Positions 1 through 13,301 of a stretch of DNA of 13,301 bases are shown here, one piece after another. The notes below the pieces were generated by a model. That model was not told the origin of the DNA, ran no database searches, and saw only the letters and a list, made by a program, of their open reading frames with translations. The position numbers were made by a program, and so were the translations under genes. Source of the DNA: Candidatus Vampirococcus lugosii (GTDB lineage Bacteria; Patescibacteriota; Gracilibacteria; Absconditabacterales; Absconditicoccaceae); the NCBI RefSeq assembly GCF_018420025.1, contig NZ_JAEDAM010000025.1, positions 1 to 13,301 of the forward strand, written 5' to 3'. Every line of letters starts with the position of its first letter. Positions within the stretch are counted from its first letter, which is position 1.

Positions 1-445
1 TATCATATTCATCTATCAATATTACTACTTGTTTTCCTGTTTTTTCATATATTTTTTTTGCAAGTGTACCTATATTAAAACTTTTTGTAAAATCTTCTAA
101 ATTATATATTTTTCAATCATAAAATATTTCAAGCTTTTCATTTATAAATTCATTTACATCTTCAAATTCGTTATAACTTGCAAAACTCATATATACTACT
201 GGATTTGTTTCTTCAAAATTTCGTTTATCATAAATATATGTATTTTGGAATAATTCTTTTTCTCACATATACAAATATTTTATCATTGATAATGTCAATG
301 ATTTCCCAAATCTTCTTGGTCTAGACAAAAAATAATACCTATTACTTATCAATAAATTATGTATTGTTTTAGTTTTATCTATATAATATCATTTTTCATT
401 TATAAATGTTTTGAAATCTTGTGTTCATATCAATATTTTTTTCAT
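1..445 (-). CDS. AAA-ATPase-like protein (Pfam PF09820-type N-terminal domain; family usually ends in a PD-(D/E)XK PF08011 domain). Only the 5' part is present; the gene runs off the window at position 1
   Basis: Reverse-strand ORF from ATG (445-443), open to position 1, no in-frame TAA/TAG. With TGA=G it reads MKKILIGTQDFKTFINEKGYYIDKTKTIHNLLISNRYYFLSRPRRFGKSLTLSMIKYLYMGEKELF...GTLAKKIYEKTGKQVVILIDEYD. G.YY.DKT, YFLSRPRRFGKS (Walker-A-like) and VVILIDEYD (Walker-B-like) are the signature of the predicted AAA-ATPase family. Confidence 0.8.
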
Positions 446-514
446 TTCTTTAATTTTTTTAATTTTACTAAATCCTTTTCATTATATTTTTTTCTTTACC
501 AAAATCAACATCTT

Positions 515-532
515 TTCCCGCCCGGGCGGGAA
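515..532. terminator. Perfect 18-nt palindrome TTCCCGCCCGGGCGGGAA (14-nt all-G/C core) abutting the hsdS stop codon. Candidate stem-loop terminator or protein/recombinase binding site
   Basis: Read directly: cccgcccgggcggg at 517-530 equals its own reverse complement and is extended by tt/aa. It can fold as a 7-bp stem with a CCGG loop. It lies between the hsdS stop (533-535) and the downstream AAA-ATPase start (445). No clean U-tract follows on either strand, so the terminator role is uncertain. Confidence 0.4.
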
Positions 533-1792
533 TTAAACTTTAACTCTTACTTTGCCCGTCAATAAGTCCTTCATAAGTCATTTTTTAATATTTTCAAGTT
601 TATGTTTATATGCTTGTTCTTTTTCTATTTTTTCATCTGCATTTGATAAAATTTCTGCTATTTTTTGTTGTTCTTGAAGAGGAGGATTTTTTATTTTAAA
701 ATTTCTTAAAACATTTAATGGAACAAAATTTTGACTAGTTCATGATAAAATAGATTCAATATTTTTATTAAATAAAGAAGTATTTAAAAAATAATAAAAA
801 TATTTAGATTGAATCATATTTCAATTAAATCTAAAAATTCAAACATTTTTGACAGAAAAATTGATTTTATCATTTAAAATAATAACAGGATTTCAAATAG
901 TTCATATCATTCAAAATAATATATCATATTTTTTAACATAACTTCTTTTATTTATATTTAAATAGTCATTATATGATATATTATAGAAATCATCTAATTT
1001 TAATTTTCAATAATTTCATAAATTCTTTGATGTATATAATGGATATCAAAAAATTACTGGTTTAGGTGTATCATGTGTTCAATCAGTAATACTACTACAA
1101 ACTTCAATTGATTCTTTCACCTCCCAACTCTCTGGAATTTTCCCCAACTCACTATCTTTAAATTTTGTATGAGGTTTTCAAGTATTTATATCAATTCATT
1201 TTGTAAATAAATCTTCCATCAATCAAGTTTTGATTTTTTTGTATTTTTCTATCAAATCATCAGTTTTTTGTATAGCTTCATCTACTGTTGAAAGTATTTT
1301 TGCTATTTTTTGTTGTTCTTGAAATGATTGAGGAAAAGTAATAAAAATATTTTTTAAATCTCAGTTATTTATAGCTTCTTGAGTACTTCATTCAGCATAT
1401 AAATCTTTTTGTTTATTAAAATCATCTGACAATATAAATTGATAAAGATAATCAGAATTTATTGATGTATTTAATCATAAAAATCAAGTAGATAATATAT
1501 ATTTATTATATAGTTCATTATTAGCTTTTATTACTTTTAAAGTATATCTCATTTTAGCAAAATATATATTATCAATGATAGCTTGTATATTTGCTCTTGA
1601 AGGTCTTTTATTAAATGTAATATATTCTTCAAAAGAAATAATTTTATTTCATTGAATTGATGAAGTAGATAAATATTTTTTTTCTCAGTTAAAATTTATA
1701 ATTCAGCTTCATTGAATTTTAAAAAAGTTTTCATCTACAAGATTTGTTGTTTTCCACCCTTCAGGAATTTTCAAATTTTCTATATTAGTCAT
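533..1792 (-). CDS. hsdS: Type I restriction-modification system specificity subunit HsdS (full length, two target-recognition domains)
   Basis: Reverse-strand ORF from ATG 1792-1790 to TAA 535-533, 419 aa, no in-frame TAA/TAG. With TGA=G: MTNIENLKIPEGWKTTNLVDE...LSTGFLGL...AEGSTQEAINNGDLKNIFITFPQSFQEQQKIAKILSTVDEAIQKTDDLIEKYKKIKTGLMEDLFTKGI...ELGKIPESWEVKE...ITDGTHDTPKP...LFGMIGTIGNP...SGTSQNFVPLNVLRNFKIKNPPLQEQQKIAEILSNADEKIEKEQAYKHKLENIKKGLMKDLLTGKVRVKV*. This is the classic HsdS layout: TRD1, central conserved region, TRD2, C-terminal conserved region. Confidence 0.93.
656..678 (-). repeat. 23-nt direct repeat copy 1 inside hsdS (encodes QEQQKIA of the C-terminal conserved region)
   Basis: tgctattttttgttgttcttgaa at 656-678 is identical to 1301-1323. 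Confidence 0.85.
1301..1323 (-). repeat. 23-nt direct repeat copy 2 inside hsdS (encodes QEQQKIA of the central conserved region)
   Basis: Identical 23-mer to 656-678, 645 nt away. It matches the duplicated conserved spacers that flank HsdS target-recognition domains. Confidence 0.85.
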
Positions 1793-1992
1793 AATTTTAT
1801 TATTTTAAATAAAATAGTTATTATCCCCAAAAACAAACTTTTTTGCAAATATTTATTTTATATAATTTTTTATAATATATAAAAAAAATTTTATTTCAAT
1901 AAAAAAACTATTGTATAATTATAAATTACTTGAAATATTTAATAATATCTATATTATGATAGGTAAATTATTTAAATTTAACATAATTTTTT

Positions 1993-4020
1993 ATGAAAAA
2001 TATTCGTAATTTTTGTATTATAGCACATATTGATCATGGTAAATCTACTTTAGCTGATAGAATGCTTGAAATTACTTGAACAATAAAAAAATCTGATCAT
2101 TGACAAGTACTTGATAAGTTAGATCTTGAACAAGAAAGATGAATTACTATAAAATTAACTCCCGCTAGGATGCAATGGAAATGATATGAACTTAATTTAA
2201 TTGATACTCCATGACATGTTGATTTTCAATATGAAGTTAGTAGATCATTGTCTGGGGTAGAATGAGTAGTTTTACTAGTTGATGCAAGTCAATGAATTCA
2301 AGCTCAAACACTTAGTACATTATATATGGCATTAGATTACAATTTGGAAATAATTCCTGTTTTGAATAAAGTTGATTTACCAGCTGCTGATCCTGAAAGA
2401 GTTTGAAAAGAATTAGAAAATTTAATTTGAGTTGATCAAAATGATATAATAAAAATATCTGCAAAAACATGAGAAAATGTAGAATTAGTGCTTGATTCAA
2501 TAATAGATAAAATATTAAGTCCTGATGTTTTTTTGGATATATACAAAGATATGTATTATCATAAAATTGCTCCTGAAAAAATTAAAGATGACAATAATAT
2601 AACTAGAGCTTTAATATTTGATAGTGTATTTGATAGATATAAATGAGTTGTAGCTTATATAAAAGTTCTTAGTGGTTCCATAAAAGTATGAGATCATATA
2701 AAACTTTCTCATACCAAAATTTGATTAACTCCTACGGAAGTTGGGCATTTTGCTCCTGATTATGAAAAAGATAAAGAAATTAGAGAATGACAAATATGAT
2801 ATATTCTTACAGGTCAGAAATCTGTAAGAGATGCAAAAATTTGAGATACAATTATTAATATTCAAGATGATAAATTAAAAATTAAAGATTATGATTTATT
2901 ATTTGATAATAAAAAAATTCCACTTAAAGATCTTGCTATTCCTTGATTTAAGAGAATAAAACCTTTTGTATATTCATGAGTTTATCCTTTGAACACAAAT
3001 GATTATGAGAAATTAAGAGATAGTTTTGAGAAACTTACACTTAATGATAGTGCTATTGAATATGAATATGAAAATAGTTTAGCTTTGTGAAATTGATTTA
3101 GAGCTTGATTTTTGTGAACATTACATATGGATATTATTAGACAGAGATTGGAAAGAGAATATTGAATAGAAACAATATTTACAGTTCCTAATGTTATATA
3201 TCTTGTCAAACTTAAAGATTTAACCTTGGAAAAAGTAAAAACTTGAAATAATATATTGGAAATAGTAAAATCTTGATATCATAAATTTGTAATTGATGAT
3301 TTTGATGAAAGAGATTCAAATTTATCTGATGCCGAAATAGCTGATAAATATTTGGAACAATTAAAATACTGGATGATAATTAGATCAGGTAGTGAAATGC
3401 CAGAGCCTGGGAAAATAGAGTTAATATGGGAACCTATTTCAGAAGTAGAAATTGTTGGTCCACAAGATTATAGTGGTAATATAATGGATTTGGCACAAAA
3501 TCATAGATGAGTTTTGAAATGAATGGAATATATTGATAATGATAGAGTTTTGCGAAGATATAGAATTCCTTTGGCAGAAATAATAGTTGATTTTTATGAT
3601 ATATTAAAATCTACTACTAAATGATTTGCAACTATGAATTATGATTTTAAATGATATGAACAAAATGATTTAGCAAGAGTAGATATTTTGGTAAATAATG
3701 AAAGAATTGAAGCTTTTAGTTTAGTAACTCATAAAGATAAAGCTTATAATCTAGGCAAAAGTATAGTTTCCAAATTGAAAGAACATATTCCAAAACATTT
3801 GTTTGCTGTACCTATACAAGCTGCAATATGAACTAGAATAATAGCAAGAGAAACTATTCCTGCTATGAGAAAAGATGTAATAGCAAAATGTTATGGATGA
3901 GATGTTACTAGGAAAAGAAAACTTTTGGCAAAACAAAAAGAATGAAAAAAGAAAATGAAACAAATGTGATCTGTAAATGTGCCAAATGATATATTTATTA
4001 AAATGGTAAGTAGAAATTAA
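1993..4020 (+). CDS. lepA: Translation elongation factor 4 (LepA / EF4 GTPase), 675 aa
   Basis: ATG 1993 to TAA 4018-4020, with an in-frame TAA upstream at 1984 and no internal TAA/TAG. With TGA=G: [31 protein letters not shown]...LDLEQERGITIK...[18 protein letters not shown]...[18 protein letters not shown]...[13 protein letters not shown]...[28 protein letters not shown]...[28 protein letters not shown]...[58 protein letters not shown]1-G4 GTPase motifs and the LepA C-terminal domain are all present. By hand count there are about 33 in-frame TGA codons. Confidence 0.97.
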
Positions 4021-4210
4021 TTATATTAAAATTAGTTTATAATTTAAAATTTATTGTTTAATAATTTGATTAAATTAGGTTTAAAAATAATATTAAAATA
4101 TATCAAAATAATGATACATTTTTTTTGTGAATATTTTGTTTATATTTCAAAATATCTTTAGTACAAAAATACTTTTTGTAAATAATTTTATTTTTTAAAA
4201 ATAATAAAAA

Positions 4211-5203
4211 ATGAAAAAATGATTTAATTTATGATATATATTATTATGAATTATTATTTCATTTACATTTTTTTTGTTATTTTATTCTTATCAAAATTGA
4301 GATATTGTTTTTGAAAAAAAATTTGAAAATTCAAATTTGGAAAATACAGAATGAATTTTATATTTTTCTCCTACTTACGATCACGAACGATATTTAGATT
4401 ATATTGATGAAAATACTGAAAATTTATGGATTTATATTTATTCTTTTATTTATGATCCAATTATTGATAAATTTGATAAAATATCAAAAGATACAGATAT
4501 AAAAATTATTATAGAAAATAATAAGTTTAGACATAATGACAAAGATTATTTGCAATTAATTGAAAGATTCAAAAATAATTCAAATATTGAAATAAAAAAC
4601 GATGAGGATTTAGATATTAATTTTATGCATGCTAAAACTTTTTTGTTTGATGATAAATTTATAATACAAACAGCAAACTTAACTTATTCTGCATTTTTTA
4701 GATCATCAGAAATATTTTTTGTGTGATATAATAAAAATATTTTGAAATCATTAAAATATATTTTTGAACAAGATTGGAAATGAGAAAGTATAGATAAAGA
4801 TAAAATACATCCAAATCTTTTGGTTTGTAATATAAATTGTAGAGAAACTTTTGAAAATTATTTATCAAATGCTAAAACTAGTATTAAAATATTTAATCAA
4901 AGTCTTTCAGATCCTAATATAACAAATATATTGAACAATTTTGATTGAGATTTAAAAATTATTTTATCAGATAATGAATATAATTATTCAAATAAAGAAA
5001 TTTTTGATAATAATGAATTGCAATTTTTGGAACAAATATATTTACATGCAAAATCAGTTTTGATAGATGATAAATATTTGATAGTATGAAGCACTAATTT
5101 CACTACTAACTCAATTGACAATAATAGAGAAATTAATATAGTTATCATTAATAATGATTTAATTAATGATTTTAATAAAAATTTTTCTAAATATTGGAAA
5201 TAA
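4211..5203 (+). CDS. Phospholipase D / HKD-superfamily protein with two HKD motifs and an N-terminal transmembrane anchor (330 aa)
   Basis: ATG 4211 to TAA 5201-5203, no internal TAA/TAG. With TGA=G: MKKGFNLGYILLGIIISFTFFLLFYSYQNG... (hydrophobic N-terminal helix). First HKD: NFMHAKTFLFDDKFIIQTANLT (HxKxxxxD with a degenerate GSxN). Second HKD: LHAKSVLIDDKYLIVGSTNFTTNSIDNNRE (complete HxKxxxxDxxxxxxGSxN). Confidence 0.85.
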
Positions 5204-5313
5204 ATATTTAATTTAAAATAAGATTTGCGAAAAAATAAAAATATTTTTATATACTATACTCTCTTTTTTATATAAAAATTTAACTAATCTCGTAATTTTT
5301 ATATTTATATTCA

Positions 5314-5343
5314 TTGAAACAGTCTAGTATAAAAAAGTATAAT
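5314..5343 (+). promoter_or_regulatory. Candidate sigma70-type promoter (TTGAAA, 18-nt spacer, TATAAT) upstream of the receiver-domain gene
   Basis: TTGAAA at 5314-5319 and TATAAT at 5338-5343, about 83 nt upstream of ATG 5426. Hexamers like these arise easily by chance at this AT content, so support is weak. Confidence 0.3.
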
Positions 5344-5425
5344 TTTGTCTTGAAATATTAAGTATATTACTATATTATATAACACTAAATAAAAAAATTT
5401 AAATTAAATTAATATAAAATAAATA

Positions 5426-5761
5426 ATGCTAATATGATTAATAGATGACAAAGATTATTGAATAGAACAAATAAAAAAATCAGTTCCAAATAATATAAAA
5501 TATAAATTTAAACATTTTTTTAGTTACAAAGATGCTATCAAAGAAACTTTTGATATATTATTTTTGGACTATTATTTAGATAAAGATTGAGTAAAATGAA
5601 AAGAAGTAATCCAACTTATGGAAGCAAATATAATTATAGGATTTAGTTCTGTTCCTGAATGTAATAATATATTATTAATTAAAGGTGCAGATTATTGAAT
5701 TACTAAATTAAAATCAGATGATAATGAAGATTTAAATAAACTTATGAAAACAATATTATAA
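5426..5761 (+). CDS. Stand-alone CheY-like response-regulator receiver (REC) domain protein, 111 aa
   Basis: ATG 5426 (in-frame TAA two codons upstream, at 5420-5422) to TAA 5759-5761. With TGA=G: MLIGLIDDKDYGIEQIKKSVPNNIKYKFKHFFSYKDAIKETFDILFLDYYLDKDGVKGKEVIQLMEANIIIGFSSVPECNNILLIKGADYGITKLKSDDNEDLNKLMKTIL. Motif spacing follows REC: acidic pair (IDD), putative phospho-acceptor (DILFLDYYL..G), S/T position (IIGFSS), and GADYGITK with the conserved Lys. Called from motifs only. Confidence 0.6.
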
Positions 5762-5775
5762 TTTAATTTTAATGA

Positions 5776-5807
5776 AAAAAAGAAATATTTTATTATATTT
5801 CTTTTTT
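5776..5807. terminator. Candidate bidirectional stem-loop terminator between convergent genes
   Basis: aaaaaagaaatat (5776-5788), loop tttatt, atatttctttttt (5795-5807): a 13-bp perfect inverted repeat with A-run and T-run arms. It sits between the + strand REC stop (5761) and the - strand Cys-rich gene stop (5883). The stem is nearly all A:T, so stability is modest. Confidence 0.45.
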
Positions 5808-5882
5808 ATATTATTAAAAATGAATTATATACTACAATATTATTTATAAATAAAATTTTTTATCATAAATAAACAAAAAATG

Positions 5883-6461
5883 TTAATATTTTTGCACACA
5901 TTCATTATTTTCACACTTAATTTCACTAAAGATACAATCACATATCCTATCATCAAAACAACTTATATTATCTAATACAAATTTTTCATAAGATTTTATA
6001 TAATTCACATTCATAATTCTTCAACAACAATAATCATCAGCAATACCACAATCTGAATCAGTATCACAATAATTTATATTACCAAATTTTTTATTAATAA
6101 CATTTCAAATATTATTACATGATATTTCTGATAAATTATTTTTTTCATCTTCTATATTTTTTAGAACTCTAGAAACATTATTTTCTCATATTCAAGTTTC
6201 TAATTTTTCTAACAAAACAATAATTATAGCTTTATTTCTTTTATTTTCAGTAATATCATATATTTTATCTATATGATTTATATACGATATTACTTTTACA
6301 TCTGTTTTTGAAGTATTTATAATTATATTAGCAACTTCTTGAATTTTATTTCTTTTGACCTGTGATATTTTTTCTTCATACATAGTATTAGAATACATAG
6401 AATTAGAAGTTCATAATCATATGATTATTGAAAACAATCATAAAACAAATAACTTTTTCAT
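5883..6461 (-). CDS. Secreted hypothetical protein with a signal peptide and a Cys-rich C-terminal module (192 aa)
   Basis: Reverse ORF from ATG 6461-6459 to TAA 5885-5883, no internal TAA/TAG. With TGA=G: MKKLFVLGLFSIIIGLGTSNSMYSNTMYEEKISQVKRNK...EISCNNIGNVINKKFGNINYCDTDSDCGIADDYCCGRIMNVNYIKSYEKFVLDNISCFDDRICDCIFSEIKCENNECVQKY*. The N-terminus is signal-peptide-like, and there are 10 Cys in the last ~80 aa. The supplied 6192..6398 minus-strand ORF is an internal fragment of this gene. Confidence 0.7.
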
Positions 6462-6499
6462 ATTAAATTAAATTAAATTTATATAAAATATATAATTAT

Positions 6500-7894
6500 T
6501 TACAACAATTCATCAATTTTTATTCTTTTTTGTTGCATAGTATCTCTATCTCTAATAGTTACAGTTTGATCTTGTAAAGTTTGATTATCAATAGTAATAC
6601 AATAAGGAGTTCATATTTCATCTTGTCTACGATATCTTTTTCAGATATTTCAAGATTTATCAAATTCACAAACATATTTATCAGAAAGTTTTTCAAAAAA
6701 TTCTTTTCATTTATCCAACATTTCTTGATTTTTTTCCATCAAAGGAAGTATAGCATATTTTATTGGTGCTATATTGAAAGGGAATTTAATTACAATTCTA
6801 TTTTGCTCATTTCATTTTGGATCAATATATTTTTCTTCATTATAATAATTTGCCATCACAACAAAAGCAGTTCTATTAAGTCATATACTAGATTCTATAA
6901 CATAAGGAATATATCTAAATCAAGTTTTGGGATCAGAATATTGCATATCTACCCCACTATGTTTTTGATGATTTTTGAGATCATAATCAGTTCTATTATT
7001 CAAAGCTTGAATTTCTCACCAAGCCCAAGGAAATTTATATTCAAAATCATGAGTACAATCTGAATAATGTGCTGCTTCTTCTTTTGGTAATTCTCTAGCT
7101 TCTATTTTTTCTTTATCTATTCATAATATATCAGTCCACCATTTATAAAATTCATCTTTCCAATATTCATAAGAATCTTTTGCATCATCAGGATGTACAA
7201 AATATTCTATTTCCATTTGCTCAAATTCTCTCTGTCTATAAATAAATTGTCATGGTGTTATTTCATTACGAAAAGCTTTTCCTACTTGTGCAATACCAAA
7301 TGGAACTCTAACTCTCATAGTATTTAAAATATTTTTGTAATCAACAAAAATTCATTGACAAGTTTCTGGTCTAAGATATACTAAATTTTCATCATTATCA
7401 ATTACTCATTGATGAGTTTTGAACATAAGATTAAATTTTCTAATTTCTGTATAATCCAATGCTCAACATTTTGGACATATGATATTTTTTTCAATAATAT
7501 ATTCTGACAAATTTTCTGTTGGTGTTCACTCCCCTGCCCAATTTTTGGGAACTTGAGAATCATTAGATTTATTTATATATTCTTCTATTAATTTATCTGC
7601 TCTAAATCTATTTTTACATTTTTTACAATCCATAAGTGGATCATTAAAACCTGCCACATGTCAACTTGCTTGCCAAACTTTTTTATTCATAAGAATTTGA
7701 GTATCCAAAGCTATTATATCTTGTCTTTTATGAACAAATTCTTTCCACCAAAGATCTCTTATATTATTTTTAAGTTCTATTCAATAAGGTCAAAAATCCC
7801 ATGCATTTCCAAGTCATCAATAAATTTCACTACCAGGATATACAAATCATTTTCTTTTTGCCCATGAACTAATAGTATCAAGTTTAATTTCCAT
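6500..7894 (-). CDS. glyQS: Glycine--tRNA ligase (class II, homodimeric alpha2-type GlyRS), 464 aa
   Basis: Reverse ORF from ATG 7894-7892 to TAA 6502-6500, no internal TAA/TAG. With TGA=G: [53 protein letters not shown]...[17 protein letters not shown]...[11 protein letters not shown]...[34 protein letters not shown]...[10 protein letters not shown]...[51 protein letters not shown]. Class II motifs 2 and 3 and the C-terminal anticodon-binding domain are recognisable. EIYGG is encoded as gaa att tat TGA TGA. Confidence 0.95.
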
Positions 7895-8034
7895 AATAAT
7901 ATTTAATATTTTTATATATAATAAATATATACTTTATATATAAAATATATAAGTTTTCAAGATTAAGTTAATTTTTTATCTAATATTAATACAAGGATTT
8001 ATAAATTTTAGTCTACAAAGATAAATTTAATAAT

Positions 8035-11000
8035 TTATGAAAGTCGCCATTTTTTTGAATTAATTTTCTTTACATTGTCTTGACAAGATGGATTTAATCT
8101 TAATTTTTTATTATATATAGTATATCCTTCTGGAGACAAAGAATTATCAGGATTTATATCAATATCTAATCAAATATCATTCGCCAATTCTCTAAGATAA
8201 TTATCTACATAATATTCTAATGGTGTTTCCAAATTTCATGAATAATAATAATTGTAATCAAGTTTATATCTAGATAATTTTTTATTATCTCAAATAGCAA
8301 TAATAAATCTTGCTATTATTTTTCAATTTTCATCAGCAATATTAAATACTCATTTATTTACATCTATTGTATTACTTATAGATGACCACCAATATTCTCA
8401 TAATGATCATCTAGTATGAAATTTATCAATATCAATAGATTTTCATACTCAAAGAGATTTTAATGGATTTTTTTCTCTTTCTATCTTAATTTTATTTAAA
8501 AAACTTTTAGAATCTCAAGTAAAACTATCTCATCTAAAAAGACAATCTATTTTACGAGTATAATTATCATTCAATTCTCTCAAATTTTTTATTTGTAATT
8601 CCAATTCATCCCATATTTCTTTATCTAAAGAAATTATAGAATCTTTATATTTTAAAATATTTTGACTAAAATAATCCAATAAATTATTAATTGTTATATT
8701 AAAATAAGATTCTTTATCTGTATATACACTAGAAACAAAAATAGTCTTAAATTTTATTTTATTTAGATTTTTATCTAAAACTCATAAATTATTTATTTTT
8801 TCTATACTTTTTATAGCTAATTCAAATGGATTATCTATTGATAATCATATATTTTCAATTTCTTTATTTTTAAATATTTTAGTATTTGATGATAACCATA
8901 TTTTCTGTTGTTCTTGTGATAAAGATTTATCTAATCGTTCTTTATTTTTTTCCAAATCATATTGCAATAAATTATCAGGACTTAATTTTTCTTGTTCATC
9001 AAATTCTCAATTTAAATATCATATTAATATTTCAATTATATATTCTCTTTCTCAATTATATAAATGTGAATTAAAAGAATATTCCTTATTATACAACATT
9101 TTAAATGCATTTATAAAATCTGGATTATCAAATTTATTTTTATCTATTTTAGATATTTTATCTATTTTTTCTTTAAGATTTACAAAAGCAAATTTTTTCA
9201 ATTCACTAATTATTTTTTTATAATACATATTATCAAATTTTTTTAATACATTTTGCATAAAAAGTTCTTCAAGTCATTCTATATTTTCATTTTCAATAAA
9301 ATAATCAAAATATTTTAATTTTTTTTCACAATTTTGTGTATTATTTTCTTTTAATATTTCTTCAAACTCTTTTTTTAGACTATCAAAATCTAATTTTCAA
9401 GTTTTTTTATCTATAAAATAACTAATTGTTTTGGGTAATTCTTTTTGTTCTAATTCAAGATCTAATTCTTTAATTAAAGATAATTTTTTTATTGAATCAA
9501 TAAGTAATTGATTTTCATATTTTACACAATATCAAATTATATCATCAAAAATATTTTTTTGCAAACTTGAATCTGGAGTAGAATCAATAATATATATTGA
9601 TTTTAAATATTCTTGTATATCTGAATTATTACACTTTTGTATAAATTCATCAATTGTATTAGATAATAAAATGAGTAATTTTATTTTACTTTCATTTCAA
9701 TATATCAAAATATTTCTAACATATTTATTACTCAACAATTTATCAAAATCTTGTAAAGAATTACATAATCAAATTATAAATCTAATATTATTTTTATTTC
9801 AATTTACTAACATATTTCTAACATATTCATTATTAGACAAGCTTTTAAAATCTTGTGAAGAATTACACAATCAAATTATAGAATTAATATTATTTTTATT
9901 TCAATTTATTAATATATTTCTAGTATATTCATTATCAAACAATTTTTCAAAATCTTCCAAAGAATTACACAATCAAACTATAGAATTAATATTTTTTTCA
10001 TTTCAATCTATCAAAATATCTTTAACATATTCATTATTAAATAATATATCAAAATCTTGTGAAGAATTACATAATCAAACTATAGAATTAACATTTTCTT
10101 GATTTCAATCTATCAAAATACTTTTGGTATATTCATTAGCAGACAAGTTTTCAAAATCTTCCAAAGAAGATAATTTCAAAAAACTTTTTATATTATTTTT
10201 ATTTCAATATATCAAAATATCTCTAATATAAATATTATTAAATAATATATCAAAATCTTGTGAAGAATTACATAATCAAACTATAGAATTAACATTTTCT
10301 TGATTTCAATCTATCAAAATACTTTTGGTATATTCATTAGCAGACAAGTTTTCAAAATCTTCCAAAGAAGATAATTTCAAAAAACTTTTTATATTATTTT
10401 TATTTCAATATTTTAATATATAATTAATTTTTTCATTCTCACATAATTCATAAAAATCTTGTGAAGAATTACATAATCAAACAATAGATTTAATATCATC
10501 TTCATTTCGTTTTATTAAAATATTTTTGGTAGATTCAGTATTACACAATTTATAAAAATCTTGTGAAGAATTACATAATCAAATTATAGCTTCAATATTT
10601 TTTTCATTTCATTTTTCCAAAATAATAATAGTATGTATATTACAAATATTTAGAAAATCCTGTGAATCTTTACACAATCAAATAATAGATTTAATATTAT
10701 TTTCTTTTCAATTCATCAAAAGTTCTTGAATAAAATTATTATTATATAATAATTCAAAATCTTGGTAATTATTACATAGTCAAACAATAGATTTAACATT
10801 TTCTTTATTAGAATTTTGAAGAAATTTACTAGTATATATATTTATATTATTAGACAATTTTTTAAAATCTTCATATGAAGAACATAATGAAATTATTGAA
10901 TTAATATTAGTTTCATCTCAAGTTATCAATAAATAAGTAGTTTTTTGATCACATATATCCAAAAAATCATCATATGTTTTCAATAGTCATATAATAGAAT

Positions 11001-11889
11001 TAATATTATTTTCTTTTCATCTCATTAAAACATTAATAGAATTTTCATTATTACATATTTTTTTAAACTCATCCAAAGAATTACATAATCAAAGAATAGA
11101 TTTAATATTATTTTTATTTCAATTTATTAATATATTTCTAACATATGTATTATCACAAAATTTACTAAATTCTTGAAACGAAGAAGATAACAAAATAATA
11201 TCTTCAATATATTTTTCATTTAAATTTATCAAAAGATTTCTAAGATATTCATGTTTATTTTTATCTTTACATAATTTATCAAAATCTTCCAAAGAAGATA
11301 ATCAAAGAATAGATTCAATATATCTTTCATTTCAATTCATCAAAAGATTTCTAGTATATGTATAATTACATAATTTATTAAAATCATTAAATCAAGAACA
11401 TAATCAAACTACAGATTCTAAATTTTTCTCTTTTGAAGAAATTAAAATATCAACAATATATTCATTATTACATAATTTATTAAAATCATTAAATCAAGAA
11501 CATAATCAAACTACAGATTCTAAATTTTTCTCTTTTGAGTTTATTAAAACATTTTTTATATTTTGATTATTACACATTTTTTCAAATTCTTCAATATTTT
11601 GTCAAAATATTATTTTTTCTACAAAAGAAAAAGAAAAATTTTTTCCAAAATATTTTTCCAATATTTGAGAATAATCTTTTAATCATTTTATATATCATTC
11701 CATCAAATAAAATTCATCTTTAGTTATTCATACTTCATTTTCTTTTTTTTCATCTCATTTTTTCAAGACATCAAATATATAATTTCTTATACAATCTTTT
11801 ATACTTTCCAAATCATTTGAATCTTTATAAAGCTCTTTTATTTCAGATATTGAAACATTTGATAATGTTCAAATATTTAATTTATCCAT
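8035..11889 (-). CDS. Giant hypothetical repeat protein (1,284 aa): ~112-aa N-terminal region, 19 tandem ~34-aa repeats, ~525-aa non-repetitive C-terminal region. No family recognised
   Basis: Reverse ORF from ATG 11889-11887 (in-frame TAA 8 codons upstream) to TAA 8037-8035, 3,855 nt. I checked all 1,285 codons and found no in-frame TAA/TAG, which is very unlikely by chance at this AT content. By hand count there are about 55 in-frame TGA codons and only two GGN codons. N-terminus MDKLNIGTLSNVSISEIKELYKD has no signal peptide. The supplied 9052..9258 minus-strand ORF (MQNVLKKFDNMYYKK...) is an internal fragment. Confidence 0.85.
10033..10411 (-). repeat. Perfect 178-bp direct duplication (10033-10210 = 10234-10411, offset 201 nt), i.e. 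a duplicated two-repeat block
   Basis: I compared the two copies base by base and they are identical. They encode KSFLKLSSLEDFENLSANEYTKSILIDGNQENVNSIVGLCNSSQDFDILFNN twice. Confidence 0.9.
11365..11538 (-). repeat. Perfect 72-bp direct duplication (11365-11436 = 11467-11538, offset 102 nt) covering repeats 1 and 2
   Basis: attacataatttattaaaatcattaaatcaagaacataatcaaactacagattctaaatttttctcttttga occurs twice. It encodes SKEKNLESVVGLCSGFNDFNKLCN in both units. Confidence 0.9.
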
Positions 11890-12040
11890 TTTTACAAAAT
11901 ATTTATATATTTAAAATTTATTATAATTTTAATTATTAATATATATTTTTAAATTAAAGTCAAGACAAAATATTTAATATAGCAGTCTATTTCAAATGTG
12001 TACGACTACGGGCGAAAACAAAAAATTTATTTCAAATTGA

Positions 12041-13301
12041 TTAATTTTCAATAAGAATATCAATATTATTATTATTTTCAAATGTATTATTACTCTCTAA
12101 ATTTAGTTCATCTAAATTGACTAAATTATTATTAGAATCATACTTTTCTGGAACATAAAGACCATTATTATTATTTTTTATACTATTGTTTTTTATTTCA
12201 ATAGTATCATTAATAATATTACTTTTTACTCGAATTCAACTTTCTTCATTATCAAATATAATATTTCAATCTATATTTAAATTGTAAGAATTATCAATAT
12301 ATATTCAATCTCAAAATCATGTATTACTAGATTGAGTATGATTCTTAGTTCAAGAAATAATATTATTTTTTATTGTTGATTGAGAATTTTCATAAATAGG
12401 TCAATCATCTTCTCAAGAACAAAAAGTAAATCATCGAACAGTTGAGCAACTTTGAGAAGTACCATTTATATGATTAATGGTTAAAGCACTTCAATAATTA
12501 TCTTTTATTTCATTATTTTCTACTTCTACACTAATTGTATTAATGAATGTATTATAAATACCTCATTCAACTCATAATAAAACTCATCATGCATTTCTCC
12601 AATCTGTCAAAGCATGAGAGTTTCAAATTATTTTATTATCTTTTATCTTAACATATTTCTCTTCTTCTATTGCACCAGAAGCAGAAGCTTGATATGAAGC
12701 ATGATAAATTCATCTTTCTCAATTATTTAAAACTTCTGTATTTACTAACTCACCATATGAATAAAAACCTATCCCATCGTTAGCATTTTCTTCAAATTTT
12801 GAATTTCTTATTGAAATATTTTTCGAACCTGTTACCCTAATTCAATCAACATTATTATTATGAGAATATACATTATCAATTAATATATTATTTGAAAATT
12901 CAGCATAAATACCTCTTTGACCAAACTCTTTAATTTCAAAATTTTTAATTTCAATATTATCAAAATTATTAATAAAAATTCAATGTTCATTAATACTAAC
13001 ACCATCCAATACAGGTCTATCTGTACCGATACCTATTAAAGCAATTCATTCTTTATCTATTATTAAATTCTCTTTATAGGTTCAAGATTCTACACATATC
13101 ACATAATCTGCTTGAGCATCATCTATTGCATTTTGTATATTTTCTCAATTTTTCACTGTTATGTCGCATTTATCACTTGCTCAGCTTGAAATACTACCAC
13201 CACTTTCTTTAAAATAAGTATCTGATTCTTTTTCAACCTCACTTAAATCTCAAGATCAAGATATTTTTTCATTTATTTCTTTATTTTCTGTTAAATCACT
13301 A
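12041..13301 (-). CDS. Right-handed parallel beta-helix repeat protein (NosD / pectin-lyase-fold-like). Only the C-terminal 420 aa are present; the N-terminus lies beyond the window end
   Basis: Reverse frame is open from position 13301 to TAA 12043-12041, no in-frame TAA/TAG. With TGA=G: ...NGENIQNAIDDAQADYVICVESGTYKENLIIDKEGIALIGIGTDRPVLDG... (the typical IQ.AID.A..GD.I.V..GTY.E.L.I.K...L.G entry motif). This is followed by beta-helix rungs such as GIFINNFDNIEIKNFEI, RGIYAEFSNNILIDNVYSHNNNVDGIRVTGSKNISIRNSKFEENANDGIGF, GIYIDNSYNLNIDGNIIFDNEESGIRVKSNIINDTIEIKNNSIKNNNNGLYV. Confidence 0.8.

Follow-up and report, generated by a model that had tools for sequence, protein, structure and literature searches.

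This study focused on the genetic code of a 13,301-bp stretch of DNA (the window, meaning the whole of the sequence analysed), which is almost certainly a complete chromosomal contig of Candidatus Vampirococcus lugosii, an epibiotic predator of the Absconditabacteria/SR1 group, with genes written in the known SR1/Gracilibacteria code. The GC content is about 20%, and once TGA is read as a sense codon, nine large open reading frames (ORFs) appear over the two strands, among them lepA and genes for a glycine--tRNA ligase (GlyRS), a restriction specificity subunit (HsdS) and a phospholipase-D-like (PLD) protein. Protein alignments support glycine as the amino acid at TGA, and a second codon, CGA, probably specifies tryptophan.

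Under translation table 11, just two ORFs of at least 100 aa were found (160 and 143 aa), in agreement with the original prediction, made from the sequence alone, that none exceeds 160 aa, and the longest stretch between standard stops was 196 codons. With TGA as sense, the nine frames covered 91% of the window, consistent with the earlier view of it as almost fully coding, and the longest stop-to-stop run was 1291 codons. Making TAG a sense codon left the longest stretch at 196 codons, making TAA one gave at most 281, and in 200 simulated first-order Markov sequences read with TGA as sense, no open stretch exceeded 188 codons. The long frames are opened by TGA alone, so the effect is specific to that codon. 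All seven complete genes of the window end in TAA, and TAG terminates none of the seven genes whose 3' end lies within it. The prediction had counted three ORFs above 1.2 kb besides one of 3.9 kb, but the actual number is four, one of them cut by the contig end. Pfam searches were run with TGA masked as X, so that no amino acid was presumed, and the frames were as follows.

2-445, minus strand: 5' part of an AAA-ATPase_like gene (PF09820, Pfam E=9.5e-34), running off the contig start; 4 in-frame TGA and one CGA (codon 75, 221-223)
533-1792, minus strand: hsdS, type I restriction-modification specificity subunit (Pfam Methylase_S, match to 1yf2); 22 in-frame TGA, TAA end
1993-4020, plus strand: lepA, elongation factor 4 (Pfam GTP_EFTU, EFG_C, LepA_C); 33 TGA, 11 GGN, 3 TGG and one CGA (codon 521, 3553-3555)
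4211-5203, plus strand: PLD protein with two HKD domains (Pfam PLDc_2, PLDc); 9 TGA, 0 GGN and one CGA (codon 60, 4388-4390)
5426-5761, plus strand: ORF of 111 aa, no Pfam match, open solely with TGA as sense; 5 TGA, TAA end
5883-6461, minus strand: ORF of 192 aa, no Pfam match, open solely with TGA as sense; 7 TGA
6500-7894, minus strand: glyQS-type (alpha2) glycine--tRNA ligase (PDB 8u2q, E=4e-131); 20 TGA, 7 GGN and 11 TGG
8035-11889, minus strand: repeat protein of 1284 aa, recognised from its ORF and codon counts; 55 TGA, 2 GGN and three CGA (10507-10509, 8935-8937, 8044-8046)
12041-13300, minus strand: 3' part of a right-handed beta-helix protein gene (Pfam Beta_helix), running off the contig end; 25 TGA, 15 GGN and two CGA (12434-12436, 12230-12232)

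The table-25 translations of LepA (MBS8121952.1), GlyRS (MBS8121948.1), PLD (MBS8121953.1) and HsdS (MBS8121951.1) were letter-identical to the NCBI proteins, and the beta-helix fragment was the same as a deposited NCBI partial protein of Ca. V. lugosii. The AAA-ATPase fragment matched the NCBI entry 'AAA family ATPase, partial [Ca. Vampirococcus lugosii]' and was identical to it save at the masked positions. An exact 61-mer taken from lepA had no match in GTDB genomes, JGI metagenomes or IMG/VR. These exact matches, and the nearest named LepA matches (Ca. Absconditicoccus praedator and SR1/Absconditabacterales), agree with the SR1/Absconditabacteria lineage that had been proposed.

Glycine at in-frame TGA codons

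The TGA codons of the conserved genes fell mainly on glycine when their products were compared with solved proteins. Glycine was found at 24 of 31 LepA TGA columns in the E. coli protein (PDB 3cb4, E=2.8e-153) and at 26 of 31 in that of Aquifex, while for GlyRS the figure was 17 of 20 against a solved bacterial enzyme (PDB 8u2q). The motifs that had been picked out by eye were borne out by these structures, with TGA-encoded glycine in ERGITIK, DTPGHVDF, DASQGIQAQT and CYGGD of LepA, and with the glycine pair of EIYGG and the tryptophan pair of DLWWKEF in GlyRS. The HsdS motifs fared less evenly: against solved 1yf2, TGA stood at the glycines of IKKGLM, which aligned with the same motif, and of LFAMYGSIG, which aligned with LFGMIGTIG of the window protein, but the rest were hard to check in so hypervariable a protein. 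Of 117 homologs of the AAA-ATPase fragment, 106 had glycine opposite TGA codon 7 and 112 opposite TGA codon 61.

A wider comparison drew on 21 LepA orthologs encoded by genes that table 11 leaves uninterrupted (from Omnitrophota, Gammaproteobacteria, Planctomycetia and others), each codon of the window gene being scored against the alignment columns. Glycine was the majority residue at 25 of the 31 alignable TGA columns, with a mean fraction of 0.75 against a background of 0.067. The log-odds for TGA were +76.8 bits for glycine and -92 for the runner-up amino acid, and all other well-sampled codons scored as standard. The exchange was also visible at the DNA level, in a comparison with lepA of 13 relatives, all of which have in-frame TGA themselves: across the 33 TGA columns of the window gene, these carried GGN 232 times and TGA 130 times. 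Weighing against glycine are the roughly 6 of 31 LepA columns at which the standard-code orthologs have other residues. This minority is not considered substantive, because the GGN-encoded glycine columns of LepA behave alike (6 of 11 are glycine in E. coli). On the strength of these sequence comparisons, the interpretation that in-frame TGA would be translated as glycine is supported, as the original prediction held.

Two other accounts of the in-frame TGA codons were weighed. A tryptophan reading, as specified by translation table 4 in Mycoplasma, Spiroplasma and some endosymbionts, would suit a reduced-genome lifestyle and a GC content as low as 20%, and tryptophan is present at the TGA columns of the window in 30-43 of 150 PLD representatives as publicly translated, although these look like table-4 gene calls and not biology. 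It is highly improbable, since tryptophan was found at none of the 31 LepA and 20 GlyRS TGA columns of the standard-code references and is not among the amino acids that score best for TGA, TGG is kept at conserved tryptophan columns (7 of 11 TGG columns in GlyRS), and relatives exchange TGA with GGN and not with TGG; the earlier rejection of a Mollicutes-type code was sound. Still more improbable, to the point of being negligible, is the idea that the window is non-coding, a graveyard of pseudogenes under the standard code, or that TGA is a stop bypassed by readthrough or selenocysteine. The lack of any ORF above 160 aa under table 11 is what speaks for it, but the nine frames contain 180 in-frame TGA codons while lacking TAA and TAG for as many as 1291 codons, the same frames are kept in the orthologs of relatives, and LepA and GlyRS align over their full length to solved structures, with TGA at glycine and not at cysteine or selenocysteine. 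Selenocysteine recoding was rejected on two further grounds: TGA is dense (4.4% of codons) and placed at glycine columns, and the window gave zero Rfam matches.

TGA is also the predominant glycine codon. Over the nine genes, 5.6% of all codons specify glycine, and 80% of these are TGA (180 TGA against 45 GGN); the hand counts made earlier for lepA (33 TGA, 11 GGN) and for the giant ORF (55 TGA, 2 GGN) were exact. The relatives gave the following shares.

Relatives' lepA, locus GC 0.30-0.42: TGA 15-30% of glycine codons (7-14 TGA of about 45)
L001 lepA, locus GC 0.22: TGA 40 of 45 glycine codons (89%)
L057, locus GC 0.26: TGA 64-100% of glycine codons
Cultured Ca. Absconditicoccus praedator, locus GC 0.27: TGA 69-86% of glycine codons

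Among these relatives, including L057 with a LepA 82.5% identical to that of the window, the TGA share tracks low GC. The explanation by AT pressure, which the original prediction had offered, fits because TGA contains one G or C, fewer than any other glycine codon. TGA dominance is common to low-GC members of the clade, and is not peculiar to Ca. V. lugosii.

CGA codons: tryptophan or arginine

The code of the Absconditabacteria has been predicted to differ at further codons. Shulgina and Eddy 2021 (Codetta, PMC8629427) predicted that CGA and CGG specify tryptophan in this group, and the same was found again by KACI, a 2026 screen (bioRxiv 10.64898/2026.04.02.715157). Vampirococcus is named in neither paper, and no paper joining Vampirococcus and CGG was found in the literature searched. 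Among the 4050 codons counted in the window, CGA occurs 8 times and CGG is absent, while TGG occurs 25 times, AGA 92, AGG 5 and CGT 4. The window resembles the published Absconditabacteria pattern in that CGA is rare, CGG is absent, three genes have CGA at columns of Trp or TGG, and arginine is carried by AGA, AGG and CGT. It differs in that one CGA column is arginine-like, and that the deposited NCBI proteins translate CGA as arginine.

Three of the eight CGA codons are located at columns with tryptophan or TGG in homologs or orthologs. In the AAA-ATPase fragment, the column of codon 75 is tryptophan in 84 of 117 homologs (72%) and arginine in none, and codon 60 of the PLD gene is TGG in both nearest orthologs, those of L057 and of Ca. 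Absconditicoccus praedator (L056). The column of LepA codon 521 is L, I, V or M in all 21 standard-code orthologs, and in the 13 relatives it is CGA in 6, TGG in 5 and CTN in 2. Throughout the LepA columns of these relatives, CGA and CGG co-occur with TGG and never with AGA, AGG, CGT or CGC. The three TGG columns of the window lepA carry CGA or CGG five times in the relatives, and 30 arginine columns (AGA, AGG, CGT), used as a control, show zero CGA, CGG or TGG. In the DNA of PLD orthologs, CGA and CGG substitute for TGG at the conserved tryptophan positions 189 and 329, and elsewhere lie opposite Phe or Tyr.

Several observations weigh against tryptophan and in favor of the simpler alternative, that table 25 is complete, CGA is an ordinary arginine codon, and its association with tryptophan columns reflects chance or tolerated substitution. 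The CGA at 12230-12232 in the beta-helix gene is opposite an AGG arginine codon in the sole standard-code homolog (L054, 37-42% identity), and its position corresponds to that of AGG in a GIRV motif located nearer the start of the beta-helix protein. The homolog search for this protein returned 6 proteins, too few to judge its CGA columns. In more distant homologs the PLD column varies and is polar, and the case for tryptophan draws on few codons (8 present, 4 with usable homologs), which the deposited annotation reads as arginine. That alternative is rather unlikely, given that arginine is missing from the AAA-ATPase column, that both nearest PLD orthologs have TGG, that in LepA CGA and CGG are found in the same columns as TGG but never as the arginine codons, that they stand at PLD positions 189 and 329, and that the tryptophan prediction has been published twice, independently. 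A 150-sequence MAFFT alignment in which the PLD column appears as R or K was set aside, as the nearest orthologs have TGG at the codon level and distant homologs show many gaps and much variation there.

Judged from codon and column comparisons, CGA probably encodes tryptophan in the genome of Ca. V. lugosii. With equal likelihood, its code would combine three changes, UGA to glycine and CGA (with CGG, if present) to tryptophan, a combination matched by no NCBI table. The claim that table 25 sets how everything else in the window must be read carries one caveat: the table is probably incomplete, the eight CGA codons being likely tryptophan and not arginine. In the boldest version, CGA may still be ambiguous, read mostly as tryptophan and at a few sites as arginine, and, if true, this would make an intermediate stage in the reassignment of a sense codon open to observation.

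Decoding machinery, neighboring genes and related loci

Published work on the lineage (PMC8629427) suggests how such a code could be read. UGA would be decoded by a glycine tRNA with the anticodon UCA, presumably charged by the GlyRS encoded in the window, which would have to accept that anticodon, and CGA by a tryptophan-type tRNA(UCG). Loss of release factor 2 (prfB), likewise expected from work on the lineage, would leave no termination at UGA. ARAGORN detected no tRNA genes in the window and neither tRNA(UCA) nor tRNA(UCG) in 36 related loci. Pfam searches found no release-factor gene in the window, and no tRNA or prfB table was found in the supplement of the Vampirococcus genome paper (PMC8080830).

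The lepA-PLD neighborhood is kept in the nearest relatives (window 1993-5203; L057 7949-10987; L056 1-2993). The two genes are adjacent in L057, are separated by a 255-aa ORF in Ca. Absconditicoccus praedator (L056), and in six other loci of Absconditabacteria lie no more than 6-8 kb apart. An interruption of 0.6-1 kb splits lepA just past the GTPase domain in some SR1 relatives (L020 about 10000-12545, L050 about 10000-12998), and in oral SR1 genomes the first 180-190 codons of lepA are found alone within 10 kb (L040-L047, about 10001-10570). Endonuclease-like domains (PDDEXK_3 or DUF559) are present in some LepA database entries of 797-813 aa (P0047, P0074, P0107). Relative to the E. coli protein, the LepA of the window has extra segments at about aa 175-200, which is the same site, and at about aa 407-462. 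The site past the GTPase domain may be one of mobile insertion.

Database records of the related sequences call for some care. The public translations of the PLD representatives (P0255-P0404) are inconsistent, with arginine at the conserved tryptophan columns of the window in 26-45 of 150, where CGA or CGG had been read as Arg. Both this and the tryptophan at TGA columns are database artefacts of the code, and not real substitutions. The labels of metagenome-assembled genomes (MAGs) were compared with their lepA genes at ten loci (L003, L005, L006, L010, L013, L021, L024, L037, L050 and L039). Several MAGs labeled 'Candidatus Peribacteria' have 7-14 in-frame TGA in lepA, so they are users of UGA as glycine, whereas one labeled 'Candidatus Gracilibacteria' (L039) has zero. 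Record labels are therefore an unsafe guide to the code.

The 1284-aa protein contains about 19 tandem repeats of 34 aa (102 nt) between 9658 and 11574 (period 102, in 15.7 plus 3.2 copies), with nearly identical 201-nt blocks among them. Two TGA-encoded glycines occupy fixed positions in most units, the consensus of which is roughly ILIxGNxxNIxSIxGLCNSxxDF. No Pfam family was found for this protein or for the 111-aa and 192-aa ORFs, and its C-terminal 358 aa had no relatives in JGI metagenomes. Giant surface proteins are described as abundant in the Vampirococcus paper (PMC8080830). The 192-aa ORF (5883-6461, minus strand) has a hydrophobic N-terminus and at least 10 cysteines in its C-terminal part (CDTDSDCGIADDYCCG...CFDDRICDCIFSEIKCENNEC), and may be a small secreted, cysteine-rich protein. 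The hsdS gene (533-1792, minus strand) is solitary, the contig having neither hsdM nor hsdR, and lies between the AAA-ATPase_like fragment and lepA. Three 'partial' AAA-ATPase_like genes, mutually 76-78% identical, lie at the ends of three separate V. lugosii contigs of 13.3, 14.7 and 17.6 kb (window 2-445, minus strand, P0122 and P0123), which suggests that this repeated family breaks the assembly.

Place among known codes and consequences for annotation

The reassignment of UGA to glycine was first described for SR1 and Gracilibacteria, according to the works cited in PMC8629427 (Campbell et al. 2013, Rinke et al. 2013). Proteomic data from a BD1-5 bacterium confirmed it (PMC4032931), and Codetta recovered it in all six Absconditabacteria species tested (PMC8629427). 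The genome paper of Ca. V. lugosii (Moreira et al. 2021, PMC8080830) reported UGA as reassigned to glycine and called genes with Prodigal table 25. The finding of UGA as glycine is thus correct yet already known, for this very sequence, just as the original prediction had allowed for Gracilibacteria and SR1/Absconditabacteria in general. The window has the features of the known code 25, with TGA at glycine columns, TGG kept for tryptophan, TAA as stop, low GC and the same lineage, and there is no difference in kind, the high TGA share being found also in L001, L057 and Ca. A. praedator (64-100%). With translation table 4 (Mycoplasmatales, Entomoplasmatales and several insect endosymbionts) it shares a sense UGA in a small, AT-rich genome, but the amino acid here is glycine and not tryptophan.

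The value of these results is practical, as they add no new biology beyond the published work on the SR1/Absconditabacteria code: gene calls with table 11 fragment the genes of the window, and those with table 4 put tryptophan in place of glycine. For CGA, a prediction published for the clade is carried over to one further organism whose genome had already been sequenced, which is of use for annotation but not surprising. If CGA does encode tryptophan in Ca. V. lugosii, the deposited proteome would systematically show Arg where Trp belongs, as at the conserved tryptophan of the AAA-ATPase family, in LepA and in PLD, and the misreading would touch predictions of structure and function built on the deposited proteins.

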